NCBI RefSeq assembly: GCF_000007225.1
Contig: NC_003364.1
Coordinates: 1,050,001-1,082,000 of the forward strand
Reading direction: 5' to 3'
DNA from: Pyrobaculum aerophilum str. IM2
GTDB taxonomy: Archaea > Thermoproteota > Thermoprotei > Thermoproteales > Thermoproteaceae
DNA length: 32,000 nucleotides
Each line of letters starts with the position of its first letter. The stretch's first letter is position 1. Shown here one piece after another: positions 2,911 to 30,152 of this stretch. Both the position numbers and the translations under genes were made by a program. The notes beneath the pieces were generated by a model. The model saw nothing but the letters and a program-made list of their open reading frames with translations, did no database searches and had not been told where the DNA came from.

Positions 2911-4245
2911 GTGGAGTCAAAATTTATTGACAGAGAGGCTGAATTGCAGTGGCTAGAGGAGGCTTATAACTCCGCCTCGGCGCAGTTGCTCGTTTTATAC
3001 GGCAGGAGGAGGATAGGGAAGACGGCGTTGGCAGTGCGGTTTCTCAAGGGGAAGAGGGGGATTTACCATATGTGTACTTACGACTCCGTTGAGAAAAACG
3101 TGAAGGAGCTCTTGGGAAAGCTGGCAGATCTAACAGGGCTGGAATATCTCCGCCACTTAGAGCCGAGATTTGACGTATTTTTAGACGTCCTCGCCCGGGT
3201 CTCTGCGGGGGAGAGAGTGGCATTGGTGCTCGACGAGTTTCAATACCTCGTGGAGCTAGATCCCTCAATCCCCTCGGTATTGCAAAGAGCTTGGGATCTC
3301 TCTCTGTCTAAAACGAAAGTCTTTCTGCTCTTAGTGGGGTCAAGCGTGGGGATGATTGAGGAGAGGATTTTATCGCGCAAATCGCCCTTATACGGCAGGC
3401 GCACTGGGAGTTGGAAAATGGGCGAGTTGCCCCCAGGGAGGATACACGAACTACTCCCCGGCTGGGATCCCGTTGATGTGTTTAAGGCGTGGGCCGTAGT
3501 CGGAGGCGTGCCGTATTACCTATCTCTGTTTGACGCAAATAAGAGCCTTGAGGAGAATTTGTTGCGGCTTTTTAAAAAGGGAGGTCCCCTATACGAAGAG
3601 CCGGTGTTTTTATTAAGAGAGGAGTTGAGAGAGCCCCGTGTGTATGTGTCCATACTTGAGGCCATTGCCAGCGGGAGACATGCCTTGGGCGAAATAGCAG
3701 ACTGGGCCGGGCTGGATAGGAGCAAGGCGTCTAAGTATCTCTGGGTCCTCCAGCACCTGGAGATTGTGCGCCGAGAAGTCCCCGTGGGTAAGAAGAGGGG
3801 GCTATATTACATCTGGGACAACCTCTTCCGGTTTTGGTTCCGCTTTGTCTACCCAAACCTCTCCGCGTTAGAACAGGGGGATGTAAGGCCTTTGCAAGAC
3901 GGAGAAGCCCTCTCTCAATACTTCGGCGAGATGTTTGAAGAATTTATAAGGCGCCATTCGCCGTCTATATTCGGCGTGAGGCTGGGCAAGCTCATAAAAG
4001 GCGGCGTCGATATCGACTTGGCGGGGGAGATCCGCGGCTGTAGAATATACGGAGAGGTGAAATGGTCTGGGGATGTTGACGCAGAGGCCGTGGTGAGAGA
4101 TCTCATTAGAAAGGCGGAGGGAGACGTCTATATAGTAATTGCCAGGGGGTTTAAGAGGAGGACTGCCAACTCCTACACGCTTGAGGAAATTCTAGACGTC
4201 TTAAGGAGGGGCGGCAGGATAAGGCTTTGCGATGAGAAGACTTAA
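2911..4245 (+). CDS. archaeal AAA+ ATPase (Arch_ATPase / DUF234-type)
   Basis: Walker A GRRRIGKT and Walker B-like ALVLDEFQ. The C-terminal region has the winged-helix-like and DUF234-like layout typical of this abundant archaeal family. GTG start is 25 nt downstream of tttttattt. Confidence 0.8.
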   Translation: MESKFIDREAELQWLEEAYNSASAQLLVLYGRRRIGKTALAVRFLKGKRGIYHMCTYDSVEKNVKELLGKLADLTGLEYLRHLEPRFDVFLDVLARVSAGERVALVLDEFQYLVELDPSIPSVLQRAWDLSLSKTKVFLLLVGSSVGMIEERILSRKSPLYGRRTGSWKMGELPPGRIHELLPGWDPVDVFKAWAVVGGVPYYLSLFDANKSLEENLLRLFKKGGPLYEEPVFLLREELREPRVYVSILEAIASGRHALGEIADWAGLDRSKASKYLWVLQHLEIVRREVPVGKKRGLYYIWDNLFRFWFRFVYPNLSALEQGDVRPLQDGEALSQYFGEMFEEFIRRHSPSIFGVRLGKLIKGGVDIDLAGEIRGCRIYGEVKWSGDVDAEAVVRDLIRKAEGDVYIVIARGFKRRTANSYTLEEILDVLRRGGRIRLCDEKT

Positions 4246-4267: not shown

Positions 4268-4477
4268 GTGAGGCCTCCTGTAAAAGCCGTGTGGACGTCG
4301 AGGAGGAAGACGCCAGACGGCTACTATGTAGTGGTGCTGGGCTTATATGCAAAAGAGGCGCTGGGAGTGGAGGCAAAGCCCGCGGGCCGGTTTTACATAT
4401 ACAAAACCAAGTCGTGGCAAGAAGTCCTCCGCTTAATTAACAAGGCTAGAGAGCTCGGGCTAGACGTCAGGACGTGA
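4268..4477 (+). CDS. small hypothetical protein (69 aa)
   Basis: ORF only, GTG start, and a reasonable basic composition. There is no well-placed promoter of its own, so it may be co-transcribed with the ATPase. Confidence 0.35.
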   Translation: MRPPVKAVWTSRRKTPDGYYVVVLGLYAKEALGVEAKPAGRFYIYKTKSWQEVLRLINKARELGLDVRT

Positions 4478-15822: not shown

Positions 15823-17253
15823 ATGACGATGCAAGAGTTCCAGAACATCCACGCCACAATTAGCCACGTGGAGTCTGTGGAGGAGGTGCTGGGCATTGAA
15901 AAAAAGTTTTCGTATCAAGTTGAGCTAAAAGGCCGCATTACAAAGGACATGGTGGAGGAGATCAGCCGCCTCAAGGGAGAGCCGGATTGGATGCGCCGGT
16001 TGAGGCTGAGGATGTTAGAACTGTTTGAAAAATTGCCGACTCCGAAGTGGGTAAGGGCAGTGCAAGAAATTGATCTAGAGGCGCTTGTCCACTACGCCAA
16101 GCCCCAAACCGAGACTGTCTCGAGCTGGGATCAACTGCCCAAGGAGATTAGGGAGTATTACGAGAAACTAGGCCTGCCCGAGATTGAGGCTAAGGCATTA
16201 TTAGGCCTTGGGGCGCAATTTGACAGCGAGATCATATACTTCAACCTCAAGAAGAAGTTGCAAGAAAAAGGCGTAATTATGCTCCCCATGGAGGAGGCGG
16301 TGAGGAAATACCCAGATTTAGTACAGCGGTATTTCATGAGGGTATTCCCGCCGGAGCATAAATTCGCTGCGTTGCACGGCGCCTTGTGGTCAGGGGGCGT
16401 GTTCATTTACGTTCCGCCTGGCGTCAGAATTGAGCAGCCCCTCGAGACCTTCTTCTTCATCGGCCAGTCCATGGAGAGCCAAATGGAGCACTCCATTGTG
16501 GTGGCAGACAAAGACGCGTACGTCCACTGGATTGAGGGCTGTTCGGCGCCCCGCCTGTTGAAATACTCATTTCACAACGGCATGGTAGAGGGATACGCCC
16601 ACGAGGGCGCCACTTTGAAGATAACCACAGTACAGAACTGGTCTCGCAACGTAGTGAATTTTAACAACAAGAGGGCTATAGCTGAGGCGAGGGCCAAGGT
16701 GCACTGGGTAGAGGGCTCTATTGGAAGCAAGACTACTTACACGTTCCCCTCCACTGTTCTCAAGGGAGAGGGCGCCTCCACTGAGATCGTGGGCATTACC
16801 GCCGCCAAGGGGACATACTGGAAGGAGAACGGGGCTAAGGTGTGGCACCTAGCGCCTAGGACTAGTAGCAGAGTGGTGAACAAGAGCATCTCGGCGGAGG
16901 GGGGCGTGGCGGTGTACAGGGGGATTGTGCACGTACAGAGAGGCGCCAAATACGCCAAATCCCACGTGCAGTGCGACTCGCTAGTCCTCGACAAAGACTC
17001 AGCCACGCTCACAGTGCCCCACGACCAAGTATTTGAAGAAACCGCAGTAGTCACCCACGAGGCCACCGCCTCGACAATTTCAGAGGAGAAGTTGGCCTAC
17101 CTCCGCGCCAGGGGGTTCACCGAAGACGACGCCAAGGCCGCAATAGTGCTGGGCTTCGTCGGAGATATACTTAAGGACCTGCCCTTTGAATACGCCGTGG
17201 TGCTCGGCAGAGTAATAGAGCTTGAGTTCGGCAAGTTATCTAAAGTCGGTTAA
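15823..17253 (+). CDS. sufB: Fe-S cluster assembly scaffold SufB
   Basis: 476 aa with typical SufB/SufD beta-helix region motifs (HSIVVADKDAYVHWIEGCSAP, QNWSRNVVNFNNKRA, SISAEGGVAVYRG, VQCDSLVLD, ARGF). Confidence 0.92.
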   Translation: MTMQEFQNIHATISHVESVEEVLGIEKKFSYQVELKGRITKDMVEEISRLKGEPDWMRRLRLRMLELFEKLPTPKWVRAVQEIDLEALVHYAKPQTETVSSWDQLPKEIREYYEKLGLPEIEAKALLGLGAQFDSEIIYFNLKKKLQEKGVIMLPMEEAVRKYPDLVQRYFMRVFPPEHKFAALHGALWSGGVFIYVPPGVRIEQPLETFFFIGQSMESQMEHSIVVADKDAYVHWIEGCSAPRLLKYSFHNGMVEGYAHEGATLKITTVQNWSRNVVNFNNKRAIAEARAKVHWVEGSIGSKTTYTFPSTVLKGEGASTEIVGITAAKGTYWKENGAKVWHLAPRTSSRVVNKSISAEGGVAVYRGIVHVQRGAKYAKSHVQCDSLVLDKDSATLTVPHDQVFEETAVVTHEATASTISEEKLAYLRARGFTEDDAKAAIVLGFVGDILKDLPFEYAVVLGRVIELEFGKLSKVG

Positions 17254-23732: not shown

Positions 23733-24884
23733 CTACTCCCTCCTGGGTATTGGAACCTTGACGAAAGTGCCGTTGACGGCCTCCACCGGCTGGCCTATTC
23801 TCAGCCTGGAGGGATCCAGCTCTACGCGCAGGGTGAAGACGCTCTTTATCATTGCCTCTATCCTGCCGAGGTCCGCCTTCCAGTCGCTGGGCGCCTCCCT
23901 GAGGTACACCCCATCTCTGCCGAATACTACATGGCGTCGAATCTCTTCGACATAGAGGAGCGCGATATCTGGATGCGGCGAAAGAGGGTCTGGAAGCTCT
24001 GGAAAAGCTAATTGTACGGCTGTCGACTATCCTGTGTTTAAGTCCACGACAAGTAGGTAATAGTGGGGAGGGATCAAGACCGCGGGGCAAACCACAGGCT
24101 CACACGGAGGCGTGTGGGCCGGGCAGGCGGACTTTTCAACGCGCGCCAAAGACGCCGCGTACCTCCCGTCGCTGGCCACACAACTGAGGGGCTCTATTCT
24201 AATCACTTCGCCAGTCCTACACGTCGGCTTGCTGTATTCAAAAGACCCGTCGTATTGGCAAGGCCCGTAGACATAGCCGGAGGCGTTGGACGCCTCTCCT
24301 GCGGGGCACGGCGGTGGCGGTTTGTAGTTAAGCCCTGCGGCTAAGCAGATAGGCGCCGTAAACGGCCCCCAACGGGGATCAAAGGCAAGGGATATAAGCT
24401 GTGTAAGGCCTATCGTAATAATATGTAAAAAATCCTTTTCATTTGTAGCCAACGTCCCGCCAAACGAGTCTGGCGACGTCCGTCTGATTATATAAACAGC
24501 TGGGACGGCTATGGCGGCGATTTCAAGCGTCACGAAATCCCACGCAATTCTATAGTCAATGAGCTCTAAGGGCCCGCTTTTTACGAAATCAATTATAGAG
24601 CCATTTAGACACGTCCCCAGCTCCTTTATGCTCGTCTCCGTAAGCCTCTTTAAAAACTCCGTCTCGTTGGGCGGGGCTATTAATATCATCGCCACTCCCC
24701 TCCCAGGGCTGATCCCAACGGAAAAGTCCCTGGGCGTTACAGACACGCCGCTCTCGTTATAAGGCCGCCAGACTAGTTTGCCAAGCGCAGAAATCCTCCT
24801 GTCTATTTCATCGCCCTCCGCCCCCACAAGGTAATGAGATGGCGGCGGGGCCTCGCTTATATCTATCATAACTAACAGCGGCAA
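23733..24884 (-). pseudogene. paralog of the Cys-rich partner protein, interrupted by one in-frame TAG (24027-24029)
   Basis: The 285-aa ORF ends ...YYLLVVDLNTG-TAG. The same frame continues for 95 more codons (STAVQLAF...VVFGRDGVYLREAPSDW...NGTFVKVPIPRRE) to a TAG at 23733-23735. That extension aligns with the C-terminal third of the 273-aa paralog. Confidence 0.65.
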
Positions 24885-24888
24885 ATCT

Positions 24889-25476
24889 CTATAATTTCTT
24901 AAACACTTCCCTCAGCCGATCCTTTACTTTAGCCAAAGCGCTCATGTCTTTGCCAGGTGGTTGCGAGATATCTATATTAACTGTTCTCCTCCACGCACTG
25001 ACGAATATAACATTTACCTTAATGCCGGCAGTAGCCAGCGAGGCTTTAACGTCCTCTATTAGGGCAGAGGTCCTATTCGCCCACTTACTTGCTCTGGAGA
25101 GTCTCTCTGCTGTTGTCCTATTAGCCACGGCGCCGCAACAATAGTAGTAATCCGCGGTGCCAGTGTAATTCGCCGCCTCTAATTCCGCCTCTATCTCACG
25201 CCACACTTTTTTAAACTCCTCGCGCCATTTCTCTGGAAACTCATACCACAATTTGATTTTTTCTTGAGCCTCTTTATTTGCCTTTTTTACCTCGGGGTCG
25301 TAATGGCGAATAACGTAATATACACAGTTGTCCACTTTAATCTCAACTGCGGGCCTTTGGAAGACTGAGTAAACAACAGTCATGTTGCCGAAATTGTGCA
25401 CCTCGCCGTGATAAGTCCACGCCGCAAATACAACAGCGGCGAGGAGTACTAGGAAGAGTAGTGACTCACTCGCCAT
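24889..25476 (-). CDS. N-terminally anchored hypothetical protein (about 195 aa)
   Basis: ATG at 25476 gives MASESLLFLVLLAAVVFAAW. The central region is Lys/Glu-rich and helical. It lies between the protease remnant and the partner paralog. The track ORF starts 11 codons earlier. Confidence 0.55.
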   Translation of the reverse strand: MASESLLFLVLLAAVVFAAWTYHGEVHNFGNMTVVYSVFQRPAVEIKVDNCVYYVIRHYDPEVKKANKEAQEKIKLWYEFPEKWREEFKKVWREIEAELEAANYTGTADYYYCCGAVANRTTAERLSRASKWANRTSALIEDVKASLATAGIKVNVIFVSAWRRTVNIDISQPPGKDMSALAKVKDRLREVFKKL

Positions 25477-26085
25477 ATCTATGCACAACGCCGTAGAATT
25501 TATTAACACACTCTACAGCCCTAAACTCTATGAACGGCGGATTATCCGCAGGCCTTAACGATGTGAAAATTCCTGTAATCGTAACAAGCACGTACGGTGT
25601 TCTCGGTATTGGAGACACTTTGAGGAGAGGCGATCCGCTATCCCCTTGTTGAGTCGGCTTCCATTCAGGGTCGTAGTATATAACTAACAGACAGTACGGC
25701 CTACCGTCAGGCGCAGTGGGTTCGTAGTAATAAATCCGGGCTTTTCCTCCCTTATATCCAGTTAAGTGGCCAATTCGATACATATTGTAGATGACTTGCC
25801 CCTCATACGACTTTAGCGTGCTGTCGCTGAAGTAGGTCATGGAGACTTGTGGGTATCCGCTGTATCCGCACAACTCTATAGGCGGCGATGCCATTGTGGA
25901 TCTTTTTTCAATTTTAACAACAGCCGCGTCGACAAGATTGTCGTTTTTATCCCACAGCTTGCCAATGTAGTTTTGGGCGTTCCTCCGAAAGGAGAACCGC
26001 AATAATAGCAATGTTGGTATATACTATCGCCGTCGTCAAAGCCATGGGACACTGTTATATACGCCGGTTGCGATCCAAGCCATAC
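25466..26085 (-). pseudogene. S1-like serine protease paralog, 5'-truncated and frameshifted
   Basis: Two overlapping minus-strand frames. The upstream frame has GSQPAYITVSHGF (compare GSIPVIVTAWHC). The downstream frame has NYIGKL...DAAVVKI...GDSGSPLL (compare YYIGNQ...DAYTIE...GDSGGP). The shift is near 25990-26010. Homology stops at the inverted repeat edge (26086). Confidence 0.75.
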
Positions 26086-26288
26086 GGCGGGGTGGGGGGT
26101 GGCAATACCTTCATGACTCTCCCTTGCACATCCCCCAATTTTGAATTTTTCTCCAGCGTCTGACACCGGTCGGGCGGTGCCCCCTGGCGCCCCGCTCCCA
26201 GGTGTTGAGCAAGATTTCGTTCAACATCGCGCCTTTCAACTCCCGAGTGTTGAACTGAGTACGGGTTTCAGCTCTCCGATTTTGAACC
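26086..26288. repeat. left inverted repeat of the tnpB element
   Basis: Its reverse complement aligns with 27663-27861. Examples: ctgaaacccgtactcagttcaacactcgggagttgaaaggcgcgatgttgaacg versus ctgaaatccgtactcagttcaacactcgggagttgaaaggcgcaatgttgaacg, and also caccgcccgaccggtgtcaga. Confidence 0.9.
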
Positions 26289-26482
26289 TGGCTCTGTTCA
26301 GCGACACGGCTCCCGGCCCCCGGGCGCTGAACTGTCCCCTTTCCTGAGTTCACTCCTGAGTTGACGTCTTTTCAGCGGACACCTCCTGAATTTTTCAGGA
26401 AGTGGGCGCCGAAACTACGCTAACTCAGGAGGGATTTCAGGACGGCAGGAGGATTCAAATTTGCGGGTGCGCAGGACGGGGC

Positions 26483-27628
26483 ATGAGGGTACACAGAACC
26501 CTGGTAGTACGGAGAAAGATTGAGGAAATTCCGCCAGAGAAGTTAGTTAAGTTCCTCGAGGTGCAACAGAAGTTCAGGGAGTGGGCTACCCAGTGGTACA
26601 AGTCGGGATTCAAGGTGCCAGCACCAGAGGAGAGTCCGCTGAAGTACTTCGCAGTGGAACTAAAGTACGGTATGAGACTGATCCCCACCAACGGTCTCAA
26701 AAACGGCGTCTGGAGGGTACCTTTACCGTTTGACGCACAGCTCCGCGAAAATAACGAAAGGGATCAGAGTCGCGGTGTCTTAGTCGATTTGTCAAGAGGG
26801 GACATCAGAATTAGAAAATGGGGCGGGGGCACGATTGAAATACGGCTTAGAAAATCAGAAATCAAGTGGATAACTCAGAGACTGAGGGAGGGGGCGTGGC
26901 TGAAACTAGCCTACGCGTGGATCGGCCACACCAGGCAGACAAACTTAGTCGCCTTCAATCTGGCACTCGTCTTTGCTAGAGAGACAGAACAGTATCATCC
27001 AATTCGTATCATGGCGATTGATCTCAACGCCCTTCATAACGGCGTCTCCTGGGGCGTTGTAGACGGCGAGAGGGTAATAAGGCGCGATACCGAGAGACCA
27101 GATTTAGTCCGCGTCGGGAAGTTGCAAAAGGAGATATCCCGCCTAGACTCTCTCTGCGCGGAGAGGGGAGGAGACTACTGCGAAAAGGCGAGAGAGGCGA
27201 AGAGCCGCCTCTGGCGATTGTTGCGACGGTTTGAAGACGAGGCGGCCAAGAGACTAGTTGAGCTGGCCATAAAGCAGAAGGCCGCAATAGTGGTAGACGC
27301 GCCAGAGGACGAGTCCGTGAGGGAACTAATGGAAGGGAATTATACGCCAAACAGAAAGATATACCTAAACATAGGGAGACTGAGGAGGAGGATAAGAGAG
27401 CTGGCGGAGTGGTACGGAGCGCCTTACCTTGAGGAGAGATTGTACAGCACTGTCTGTCCCCGTTGCGGGGGCAAAATGAGAGAGCTGTCAAACAGAAAAG
27501 TCAAATGCCTGTGCGGTTTCGAGGCGCAGAGAGATCTAGTGCCCATCCTCTGGGCCCAGAGGCGGTTCTCCGAATTAGTCCAACCCTCCTCTTTTTCGCC
27601 CAATCTGTTGCCAGCGCCCGTTCTGTAG
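26483..27628 (+). CDS. tnpB: TnpB (IS200/IS605 OrfB, RuvC-like RNA-guided nuclease family)
   Basis: RuvC-I IMAIDLN. Glu candidate in AAIVVDAPEDESVRE. Zn ribbon CPRCGGKM...CLCG followed by the RuvC-III-like QRDLVP. ATG at 26483 (MRVHRTLVV) is preferred over the track start at 26402. Confidence 0.9.
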   Translation: MRVHRTLVVRRKIEEIPPEKLVKFLEVQQKFREWATQWYKSGFKVPAPEESPLKYFAVELKYGMRLIPTNGLKNGVWRVPLPFDAQLRENNERDQSRGVLVDLSRGDIRIRKWGGGTIEIRLRKSEIKWITQRLREGAWLKLAYAWIGHTRQTNLVAFNLALVFARETEQYHPIRIMAIDLNALHNGVSWGVVDGERVIRRDTERPDLVRVGKLQKEISRLDSLCAERGGDYCEKAREAKSRLWRLLRRFEDEAAKRLVELAIKQKAAIVVDAPEDESVRELMEGNYTPNRKIYLNIGRLRRRIRELAEWYGAPYLEERLYSTVCPRCGGKMRELSNRKVKCLCGFEAQRDLVPILWAQRRFSELVQPSSFSPNLLPAPVL

Positions 27629-27662
27629 TCGCCACAGACAAATGGTCTCCCCCCTTACGTCT

Positions 27663-27861
27663 GGTTCAACGTTCAAGAGCTGAAATCCGTACTCAGTTCA
27701 ACACTCGGGAGTTGAAAGGCGCAATGTTGAACGAAGTCCCGTTCAACACCTGAGGACAGGGCGCCACCGCCCGACCGGTGTCAGATACTGGGAAGAGAGA
27801 AATCAAAATTGGGAGATGTGCAGGAAAGAGTCATGAGGGAGCCACTGCCCCCCACCCCGCC
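27663..27861. repeat. right inverted repeat of the tnpB element
   Basis: See the left repeat. It starts 35 nt after the tnpB stop, where a TnpB guide (omega/reRNA) scaffold would be expected. Confidence 0.9.
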
Positions 27862-28010
27862 CCGGGCAGGGCGGGGCGGCCCTGGCGCGCGGGCCGAAGG
27901 CGGGGAGAGCCCGCCGAGGGGGTTGCCGACGCCCCGGGCGCGGCCCGCCCCGGAAGCCTCTGGCGATCCGGGGCCCCGTGTCCCCCGGGGCGCCCGGGGG
28001 GATAGGGGAC
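27862..28010. other. extremely GC-rich tract (about 85% G+C by my count), non-coding
   Basis: G- and C-runs with local palindromes (gggcagggcggggcgg, cccccggggcgcccgggggg). ORFs on both strands give Pro/Gly/Arg junk. Confidence 0.7.
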
Positions 28011-28205
28011 ATAGCCCAGCGTGGCTACAATATCACAGGGGGAAGATCAAGAACCAGCACGTAGATGGCTTTGCTATTTCAACGCATGGGAAGAGCGGAT
28101 CTTGGTATTTGGACAAATCGTCTAAAGCCATCGCCGGCGCCGCAATTATTACTAGTGCTATCTTTGTGGACATGAATTCCAGAGATTTTTTAAAAATACT
28201 CCCGT

Positions 28206-28254
28206 TCAGTCCGTCGCGAGCACGTCATATGTCGGCTTTGGTACTCGTCATCAC
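28206..28254 (-). ncRNA. candidate C/D box sRNA immediately downstream of the Pop5 gene
   Basis: Read on the minus strand. C box GUGAUGA (28254-28248), 12 nt CGAGUACCAAAG, D' CCGA, 3 nt, C' AUGACGU, 12 nt GCUCGCGACGGA, D box CUGA (28209-28206), then UAUUUUU. TATA-like ttatataaa (28272-28280) is centred about 25 nt upstream of the C box. Confidence 0.6.
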
Positions 28255-28265
28255 GTCTTTGACAA

Positions 28266-28553
28266 CTAGTGTTTATATAAGGCTTTTCTTATCGACGCGG
28301 CCACGGCCTTGGCCCTTTTAGAAGTGCCCGCCACTTTTACAGTATAACACCCGTTGAGAAGCGCCACTATGGCCCTGGCTTTTCTTACAGCGTCTCTCGG
28401 CACGCCTAATACTACGACGTCGTCGTATATGGCAATAAGCCTAGGCGGGCGTGTTAGCGCCTGGAAGCCGATTAGCTGATACCTCTCGAGGATCTCCGCG
28501 TAGCACCCCACAGGGTCGCGGCTTCGAATTAAGAGATACCGCCACTTAGTCAT
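28266..28553 (-). CDS. rnp2: RNase P protein component 2 (Pop5/Rpp14-like)
   Basis: 95 aa. The N-terminus KWRYLLIRS, the VLGVPRD and ALLN segments, and the C-terminal VAGTSKRAK match the Pop5 pattern (RY..fe..., ...GTikk.). Adjacent to Rpp30 with an 8-nt ATGACTAA overlap. Confidence 0.65.
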
Positions 28554-29478: not shown

Positions 29479-30054
29479 GTGGCCCGGTCGGCGTATAGCT
29501 ACATGGCAATGTGGTATAGGAAAATTGGGAGAGAGGTGCACGAAAGGCTAATGAGGAAAATCTTAATTGAGTGGAGGAAAGCTCCGGCAATTGTCAGAGT
29601 GGAAAGGCCTTTTAGGCTGGAGCGCGCCAGGAAGCTCGGCTATAAGGCCAAGCAAGGCGTCGTCGTTGTGAGAGTGAGGCTTATGCGAGGCCCCTTTAAC
29701 AGGAGAAGGCCCGACTCGGGGAGGAGGCCGAAGAGAATGGGCGTGTACGGAATTACGGCGTGGAAATCGTGGAGACAAGTGGCCGAGGAGAGGGCGGCGA
29801 GGAAACACCCCAATTTAGAAGTTCTAAACAGCTACTGGGTAGCCGACGACGGCATATATAGATACTTCGAAGTGATATTAATTGACTGCAATTTGCCCAC
29901 AATAAAAAACGACCCCTTGTACTCGGGGATATGCGGCAGGGAGGTGCCCAGGAGGCGCATTATAAGGAGGCTGAGGGAGAGGCAGAAGAAGACGATTGAA
30001 TACCTCAAGAAGACGCTATTACCAAGACTGAAAGAGGCGCCCAGCCAACAGTAA
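29479..30054 (+). CDS. rpl15e: 50S ribosomal protein L15e
   Basis: ARSAYSYMAMWYRK, RVERPFRLERARKLGYKAKQGVVVVRVR, RRPKRMG and NSYWVADDGIYRYFEVILID are characteristic of L15e. GTG start is 25 nt downstream of gttttataaac. Confidence 0.92.
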   Translation: MARSAYSYMAMWYRKIGREVHERLMRKILIEWRKAPAIVRVERPFRLERARKLGYKAKQGVVVVRVRLMRGPFNRRRPDSGRRPKRMGVYGITAWKSWRQVAEERAARKHPNLEVLNSYWVADDGIYRYFEVILIDCNLPTIKNDPLYSGICGREVPRRRIIRRLRERQKKTIEYLKKTLLPRLKEAPSQQ

Positions 30055-30152
30055 GTTTTTAAAACTAGGAGTAGTTTTATACAACCGCGACGGGCTGTGG
30101 AGAGCCGCGCCCGCGGCGCCGTGAAACAGCCTGACGGTGTCTGGGGACACCC

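Follow-up and report, generated by a model that had tools for sequence, protein, structure and literature searches.

A tnpB-only element in Pyrobaculum aerophilum and the inverted repeat around its gene

The locus and the limits of the insertion

The DNA considered here is a 32,000-nucleotide stretch of the Pyrobaculum aerophilum IM2 chromosome (NC_003364.1, positions 1,050,001 to 1,082,000; hereafter the window, whose own numbering we use throughout), in which a gene of the TnpB type lies between two long sequences that are reverse complements of one another. IS200/IS605 elements are usually described without terminal repeats, and the original prediction for this locus treated the arrangement as atypical. 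We find that window positions 26090-28011 are a single insertion, that its working part is a tnpB-only element in the style of IS200/IS605 (IS1341), from the 'paREP12' clade of the Thermoproteales and occupying approximately 26333/26336-28011 (~1.68 kb), and that the 200-bp inverted repeat is a product of local rearrangement and not a new transposon architecture.

The inverted repeat itself, predicted at 26086-26288 and 27663-27861, was borne out both by repeat finding, which recovered three pairs (Table 1), and by gapped BLAST, in which the two arms align as reverse complements over 206 columns with 165 identities and 10 gap positions (E = 5e-47). Identity between the arms is 80% when gaps are counted and 88.8% over aligned columns only. 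The motif said to be shared near their outer ends is likewise there, as CCCCCCACCCCGCC at 27848-27861 and its reverse complement at 26086-26099. The tnpB stop codon (27626-27628) is separated from the right arm by 34 nt, and no further copy of either arm occurs elsewhere in the 32-kb window. The last four nucleotides of the left arm as predicted (26086-26089, GGCG) are host flank and are present in the empty alleles described below.

Alleles of the same site, drawn from other strains and from metagenomes, were obtained via the neighboring host proteins. In the empty alleles L019, L023, and L024, whose flanks are 97.0-100% identical to those of the window, position 26089 is joined straight to 28012 (...ccatacggcg followed by tagcccagcg..., the junction of CATACGGCG with TAGCCCAGCGTGGCTACA), and there is neither arm nor palindrome. 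Comparison of filled with empty alleles does not allow the boundary 26090/28011 to be moved by even 1 nt, and so shows, from the one allele pair that this site provides, the seamless insertion of IS200/IS605 elements of the IS1341 type. The inserted DNA takes in both arms, which are present in every filled allele of the site (the window, L021, L025, L026/L027, and L031), together with a 150-bp stretch (27862-28011, ~84% GC) that the original prediction did not include. The repeats do therefore stand on either side of tnpB, as had been proposed, but they do not frame the element, as 150 bp separate the end of the right arm (27861) from the right boundary (28011).

Several alleles of the site are altered in other ways. 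The tnpB gene of L025 (2688-3815) is split into open reading frames (ORFs) of 163 aa and 194 aa, and that of L021 (5984-7153) is a mosaic with window-like ends and a middle from another subfamily. Strain-level rearrangement breakpoints lie at or beside the element in L022, L031, and L020: L022 (5541-5909) keeps only the arm and 3' module against the same right flank, followed by a trpF region; L031 (4901/4902) joins window position 28382 to window position 16355; and L020 (5398-5847) has ~450 bp in place of window 24446-28154. A 46-aa ORF (window 28033-28173, minus strand) is called in the empty-site strains and ends ~20 nt from the insertion point, so that the predicted guide segment listed in Table 1 falls just downstream of its stop codon.

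Table 1. Features of the insertion, components of the inverted repeat, and copies of the element at other loci (window coordinates)
Feature	Position	Strand	Remarks
Whole insertion	26090-28011	.	1,922 bp, no target-site duplication, by comparison with empty alleles L019, L023, L024
Junction microhomology	26086-26089	.	4 nt, GGCG (CGCC on the other strand); in empty alleles and also continues the arm match
Left arm	26090-26288	-	inverted, truncated copy of a paralogous element's 3' arm (L-type)
Spacer	26289-26335	-	47 nt, travels with the left arm; own 8-bp stem, GTTCAGCG...CGCTGAAC
Left-end hairpin	26336-26446 (start perhaps 26333)	+	100-nt palindrome, three TCCTGAR/YTCAGGA motif pairs
TATA-like box, GATTCAAATTTG	26452-26463	+	~27 nt upstream of CATGAGGG; putative tnpB promoter
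tnpB-like gene, 'paREP12' family	26483-27628	+	intact; 381 aa from ATG 26483 (408 aa from GTG 26402)
Right arm	27663-27861	+	internal 3' non-coding segment; contiguous with tnpB in L014, L015, L018, L028, L032
Promoter-like unit in outer arm	27800-27839	+	AAATCAAAATTG, 20 nt, then CATGAGGG; parallels tnpB promoter/start
GC-rich 3' module	27827-28011	+	~185 nt, ~84% GC; candidate omega/reRNA scaffold; ends at the element's right boundary
3' flank, predicted guide segment (TAGCCCAGCGTGGCTACA...)	28012-28031	+	predicted from the TnpB paradigm only
Inverted pair 1	26185-26288/27663-27766		104 nt, 86%; repeat finding
Inverted pair 2	26153-26184/27760-27791		32 nt, 88%; repeat finding
Inverted pair 3	26086-26147/27800-27861		62 nt, 79%; repeat finding; all three pairs collinear
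Copy L014	matches 26335-27766		without left arm
Copy L015	matches 26335-27803		without left arm
Copy L018 (metagenome contig)	matches 26336-28012		83% identity; without left arm
Copy L028	matches 26479-28012		without left arm
Copy L032			the L014 locus with its full upstream flank; without left arm

The tnpB element and its copies elsewhere

The expectation of an intact TnpB-type gene held up, the 381-aa ORF being a TnpB relative both by Pfam and by an AlphaFold2 model compared with known structures in Foldseek. The sole domain to pass its Pfam threshold is the TNB zinc finger, Cas12f1-like_TNB (PF07282; 30.1 bits against a cut-off of 26.3), and the curated TnpB family thresholds are not reached (45.5 against 100 for NCBIfam guided_TnpB, NF040570, and 12.5 against 425 for IS200_TnpB, NF038281). 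The model (pLDDT, the predicted local distance difference test score, 85.9; pTM, the predicted template modeling score, 0.78) matches over its full length, at a template modeling score of ~0.5, AsCas12f (E 5.6e-12), ISFba1 TnpB (1.7e-11), and ISDra2 TnpB (5e-8, 3e-6) among PDB entries, and the only PDB chains found by a profile of 26 relatives are TnpB-derived. As modeled, the protein has the TnpB/Cas12f fold, which combines a WED/REC region, a split RuvC, and a TNB zinc finger. Three aspartates, D180 (in DLNALHNG), D272, and D351 (in RD), are invariant in the clade.

At 90% identity, the window protein clusters with a P. aerophilum IM2 protein named paREP12 (e.g. AAL64255.1). Exact matching turned up no record of either the 408-aa form or P0128, a paREP12 paralog from IM2. 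The clade of the window protein comprises 171 clusters at 90% identity, its profile retrieves 340 representatives (E <= 1e-3) from 1.84 billion proteins, and the named members are nearly all from Pyrobaculum, Thermoproteus, or Thermofilaceae. Judged by these comparisons, the window TnpB is a member of a narrow and divergent clade.

Relatives of the element were gathered from a scan of genome contigs with the clade alignment, which gave 13 loci (the single window protein gave no match in the same contigs), and from a metagenome scan with the arm core GTTCAACAYYCGGGAGTTGAAAG, which gave two loci, of which one, L018, was useful. A scan of viral sequences, a comparison of the element with plasmid and phage collections, and a protein-database search with an 80-aa ORF overlapping the left arm, which sought arms through miscalled ORFs, all returned no match. 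A literature search for 'paREP12' found no paper describing the ends, RNA, or repeats of the element; the Pyrobaculum small RNA (sRNA) paper and the P. oguniense genome paper mention paREP families and do not mention the window element.

At four unrelated loci (L014/L032, L015, L018, and L028) the right arm follows straight after tnpB and the left arm is absent, and the arm pair is unique to the window locus among the five independent loci of the subfamily. Homology with the independent copies starts at 26335/26336, while the GC-rich 3' end is the limit of homology in every copy that has it and coincides with the boundary given by the empty alleles. Because the copies share only the sequence from 26335/26336 rightwards and homology ends at the empty-allele boundary, we place the canonical unit at ~26336-28011. 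Its order is a 100-nt left-end hairpin, a putative promoter for a leaderless mRNA, tnpB, an arm of ~200 nt, and a GC-rich 3' module. The canonical unit has no long terminal inverted repeat; there is a short one, TGTCCCCTTTCC (26333-26344) against GGATAGGGGACA (28000-28011), which agrees at 11/12 positions (chance ~2e-5). Since TGTCCCCTTTCC matches the inverted last 12 nt, the left boundary may lie at 26333. The equivalent end repeat of L029 (~2264-2274 and ~4178-4188) is CCCCCTTTC/GAAAGGGGG, 9/9, and the L018 match is weaker. The bases 5' of the left end vary between loci (TGT, TTT, CCT, and CCA), and the host flank here ends in ...CGGCG. Comparison of ends among copies, which the original prediction had proposed as a way to both the termini and the target motif, therefore delivered the former (26333/26336 and 28011) and not the latter. 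Arms and genes are mosaic across the loci, a pattern which shows that the copies recombine frequently.

The original prediction also described a hairpin, TCCTGAA-TTT-TTCAGGA, and a tandem TCCTGAGTTSAC inside the left repeat as a genuine left-end structure. The structure is as described, and it lies outside the left repeat, between repeat and ORF, where both motifs belong to a longer palindrome with arms at 26342-26390 and 26394-26442. This hairpin folds as DNA at -30.1 kcal/mol (z = -5.9). In a consensus of eight copies from five loci it has 33 pairs, of which 10 show compensatory changes, with the TCCTGAR motifs invariant. Its retention in relatives and the 10/33 compensatory pairs are the grounds on which we regard it as a genuine left-end structure. 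In the L016/L029 subfamily the left-end palindrome is also found downstream of the gene, with solo copies nearby. Solo palindromes of the TCCTGA type, resembling the palindrome-associated transposable elements (PATEs) discussed below, lie a few hundred base pairs from tnpB elements at L018 5786-5867, L029 1546-1652, and L032 2039-2153.

Between hairpin and gene, a unit of the form TTCAAAWTT, ~20 nt, CATGARG is kept upstream of tnpB in six loci. The spacing of its box is like that of the A/T boxes ahead of two genes of the window, tRNA-Val and Pyrobac-1, which suggests that the tnpB mRNA may be leaderless and start at ATG 26483. The Pyrobaculum-specific sRNA Pyrobac-1, a match to Rfam at 30081-30140 (72.8 bits), has a TTTTTAAAA box ~20 nt upstream and adjoins the gene for ribosomal protein L15e (29479-30054).

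The right arm, the 3' module, and the left fragment

No part of the element matches Rfam, either at gathering scores or at E <= 1. The right arm contains six GTTSAAC motifs, which form two short hairpins whose stems are invariant and hence show no covariation. The covariance of structure for which the original prediction had called can thus not be judged on the arm; it was found in the 3' module instead, with 8 compensatory pairs. The one copy of the arm that was folded by itself, the left arm with its spacer, did no better than shuffled sequences (z = -0.28).

The outer part of the arm carries a copy of the tnpB promoter/start unit, with the consensus TTCAAAWTTG, ~20 nt, CATGARGG; the left-arm copy lies at 26108-26148 on the minus strand. 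A 147-aa PaREP1 gene stands in place of the GC-rich module in L014 and L032 and takes its start codon from the ATG of this unit (L014 1700-1740; L032 ~4390-4430).

The GC-rich module is kept downstream of tnpB on the same strand in six further loci (L001, L002, L016, L018, L028, and L029). Its consensus has 42 pairs in seven helices; 95% of cells are paired, compensatory changes affect 8 pairs, values as high as those observed came up in only 0-2 of 500 shuffles, and slid controls collapse. Six relatives have an extra hairpin, with differing stem sequences, that is absent from the window module. Homology stops at 28012 in L018, L028, and L029, the copies diverging right after ...GGGGACA, and GC-rich blocks follow the gene in more distant relatives as well. 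A coding role for the module, as part of an ORF at 27809-28321, was considered and rejected, as the indels of relatives are not multiples of three (L018 has a 14-nt difference).

TnpB omega-RNAs, also known as right-end element RNAs (reRNAs), run up to the right end of the element, and it is the flank that provides the guide. On this analogy, the 3' module would be the omega/reRNA scaffold and the 16-20 nt past 28011 would be the guide. RNA guidance of archaeal TnpB has been demonstrated (PMC11043419; bioRxiv 10.1101/2023.03.06.531077). The suggestion that the right repeat encodes the guide-RNA scaffold is partly retained: the outer part of this arm overlaps the start of the module and the promoter-like unit, but most of the module (27862-28011) lies outside it. 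The companion suggestion, that the left repeat is an inverted second copy specifying an outward-facing guide, is not supported, because the left copy breaks off 35 nt into the module and is missing nearly all of the candidate scaffold. A profile of the module matches the left arm at its positions 1-35 only (26120-26086), and the shared motif CCCCCCACCCCGCC consists of the 5' strands of module helices 1 and 2, whose pairing partners the left arm does not have.

Where, then, does the left arm come from? Over aligned columns its identity is 91% with the L015 arm and 95% with the L022 solo arm, against 89% with the right arm of the window; by BLAST the figures are 93%, 93%, and ~80%. The L015 arm lies downstream of a paralogous tnpB that is 72% identical, and in L022 a solo arm is accompanied by a 3' module without tnpB. 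Being closer to these arms than to its neighbor, the left arm is not a recent in-place duplicate, and inverted duplication of the element's own right arm was rejected on the same figures. When strains are compared, patches of conversion in both directions between the two arms are visible. The spacer was seen only in filled alleles of this site; its arm-proximal 11 nt recur exactly beside the L022 solo arm, with looser similarity over ~27 nt. At the outer junction the canonical sequence reads CCCCCCACCC-CGCC-CCGGG, of which the left copy stops at CCCCCCACCC, the CGCC being supplied by the host flank. We conclude from these alignments that 26090-26335 (246 bp) derives, in inverted orientation, from within the 3' region of a paralog belonging to another subtype, and that it has neither canonical end.

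The window element is not the only one with an inverted piece of a paralog against its left end. In L015, independently, 141 nt from the interior of a tnpB paralog (L015 2701-2841; residues 41-87, 79% identical at the amino-acid level) lie in inverted orientation 15 nt upstream from the left end of an intact element. The promoter-like unit of the window's left arm faces outward, towards a host ORF at 25466-26011. The left fragment is probably non-functional, whether as a transposon end or as a guide-RNA gene.

Origin of the inverted repeat and comparison with known systems

Taken together, the alleles and copies lead us to favor, as the more probable history, an ordinary TnpB insertion with a local rearrangement, in which only the right repeat belongs to the element and the left repeat is a flipped and truncated sister piece. 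By alignment, the right repeat is an internal arm of the tnpB element, and the left repeat with its spacer is not an element end. In the model that we propose, transcription of the 3' module would probably begin at the promoter-like unit in the outer arm, the alternative being that the module is processed out of the tnpB transcript. The RNA would read ~16-20 nt into the flank and yield an omega/reRNA able to guide TnpB to the empty site, where cleavage would favor re-copying of the element; other TnpB elements are known to work in this way. The left fragment would most likely be a by-product of break repair or template switching between paralogs at the left junction, although this is the least certain step of the model. 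Template switching or microhomology-mediated joining during repair at that junction would agree with the microhomology, with a fragment that is inverted and comes from inside an element, and with the parallel in L015. Alternatively, the left fragment may be the remnant of a small derivative element, beside which the tnpB element was then inserted.

Such a two-step history is a serious alternative to template switching, although we consider it unlikely. It would have a PATE-like unit of 243-246 bp (arm plus spacer, minus strand) enter between ...GGCG and TAGC... first, with the tnpB element then inserted 3' of the unit's ...GAACTGT end, which would put the right end of the tnpB element against the original flank. 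Insertion of the IS200/IS605 type takes place directly 3' of a short motif, so that insertion at the junction of an element with its flank is to be expected. The spacer has a subterminal stem of its own, and the bases 5' of the left end are T-rich elsewhere (TGT, TTT), nearer to ...CTGT than to the host's ...GGCG. Related genomes have both solo hairpin units (L018, L029, L032) and a solo arm with module (L022), and PATEs are known (PMC3119063). Against this history stands the 3' module, which makes up the true right end of all other copies and is missing from the unit, leaving it with no recognizable canonical end on its outer side; the fetched loci contain no second copy with these ends, and none of the alleles carries the unit alone.

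A wider extension of the favored reading, which we put forward as rather a long shot, would make the guide RNA a separate transcription unit 200-400 nt downstream of tnpB, headed by a portable duplicate of the tnpB promoter/start unit; the inverted paralog fragments at the left ends here and in L015 would then be scars of template-switch repair triggered by TnpB, or else the whole inverted-arm composite would move as one.

That left arm, spacer, and tnpB unit are mobile as a whole, with the long inverted arms serving as functional ends or as a fold-back, strikes us as distinctly improbable. It would agree with the fact that presence and absence cover the whole 1,922 bp, with both arms in all filled alleles, and with the inverted repeats around the gene in the distant relatives L007 (161 nt) and L003 (89 nt). 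However, the right arm ends 150 bp inside the boundary, the tnpB unit occurs without the left arm at four other loci, the two arms, 11-20% divergent, are of different subtypes, the left one being a truncated piece from inside an element, and there is no target duplication. The same observations speak against the proposal of a tnpB transposon bearing terminal inverted repeats (TIRs): of the two arms only the left is terminal (26090), no target duplication was found, and no second locus among the five of the subfamily shares the arm pair.

It is very improbable that the left arm is a working second RNA gene, producing a truncated guide-like RNA directed to the left flank, or a portable promoter for the host ORF. 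Its promoter-like unit (TTCAAAATTG, ~20 nt, CATGAAGG) is kept and is aimed at that ORF ~100 nt away, and the same unit is evidently able to head a gene, as it starts the PaREP1 gene of L014/L032. Yet ~150 nt of the structured module are missing, so that a TnpB-type scaffold cannot form, and the host ORF has an A/T box of its own and is unchanged in the empty alleles. The first reading of the original prediction, in which tnpB entered the loop of a pre-existing palindrome of ~400 bp resembling a miniature inverted-repeat transposable element (MITE) or a repetitive extragenic palindrome (REP), is scarcely credible, even though long palindromic units exist in these genomes and L007 resembles an insertion into the center of one, because the right arm is linked to tnpB at four other loci without the left arm, the empty alleles have no palindrome, and the left-arm subtype is found downstream of another tnpB paralog.

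Several observations nevertheless weigh against the history that we favor. The fetched alleles of the site include no intermediate, with either the tnpB unit or the fragment alone, and as every filled allele has both arms, a one-step arrival of the 1,922-bp composite is possible. With one empty/filled pair, a target-adjacent motif (TAM) is not derivable from the available loci, and neither a Y1 nor a serine TnpA was found in the element or in the window. Within the protein, E275, which aligns with the canonical RuvC-II glutamate, varies in the clade, while D272, three residues earlier, is invariant. The promoter, omega-RNA, and guide are all predictions from sequence. Finally, some relatives have long repeats on both sides of the gene (161 nt, inverted, in L007 and 89 nt in L003), and L001, L016, L029, and L030 have the same palindrome on both sides, so that flanking symmetry may have some role in this clade. 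In L007 (2054-2208 and 3765-3924) the repeat, at 76% identity, encloses the promoter, the gene (a frameshifted relative at 38% identity), and the GC-rich region, its inner ends being GATATATG / CATATATA and the whole resembling an insertion into the center of a long palindrome.

With the inverted repeat explained as a local rearrangement, a candidate for a new TIR-type tnpB transposon is removed. In its place stands a concrete anatomy for an uncharacterized clade of hyperthermophile TnpB proteins (paREP12), with exact ends, a 100-nt hairpin, a candidate omega-RNA of ~185 nt, and a predicted guide, which is enough for a check by RNA-seq or for a biochemical test of a thermostable and compact RNA-guided nuclease. 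The repeat also shows how recombination among paralogs can make misleading 'terminal' repeats and rearrangement breakpoints in Pyrobaculum.

The IS607 family combines a serine-recombinase TnpA with TnpB and is common in Crenarchaeota. The element resembles it in its TnpB cargo, in the lack of a target duplication, and in the short related sequences at the two ends, but neither the element nor the window has a serine recombinase gene. For the 'paREP12' genes of Pyrobaculum, with which the window protein shares a cluster, the name is a repeat-family label from genome annotation only. The PATEs and core-deleted IS605-type remnants of haloarchaea (PMC3119063) are similar in being non-coding derivatives that keep only the end-proximal palindromic parts, in lacking a target duplication, in their frequent internal deletions, and in nesting beside or inside related elements. 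The left fragment, in contrast, keeps neither canonical end, is inverted against the left end of an intact element, and comes from a different phylum with unrelated sequence.

The closest likeness is to the IS1341 group and ISDra2. Like these, the element has a tnpB of ~380 aa on its own, whose product takes the TnpB/Cas12f fold; it inserts seamlessly, with no target duplication; its left end bears a large hairpin; a conserved structured module closes its right end, the expected place of an omega-RNA scaffold; and its copies within one genome are divergent and mosaic. There are also differences: the window protein is very divergent and below the NCBIfam TnpB cut-off, its left-end hairpin is ~100 nt rather than ~20-30 nt, the module lies ~200 nt or more past the stop codon instead of overlapping the ORF and has a promoter-like unit of its own, the termini carry an inverted repeat of 9-12 bp, and TnpA is absent from element and window. 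By its seamless insertion, left-end hairpin, and structured 3' region at the right boundary, the element nonetheless appears to behave like an IS200/IS605 element of the IS1341 type.

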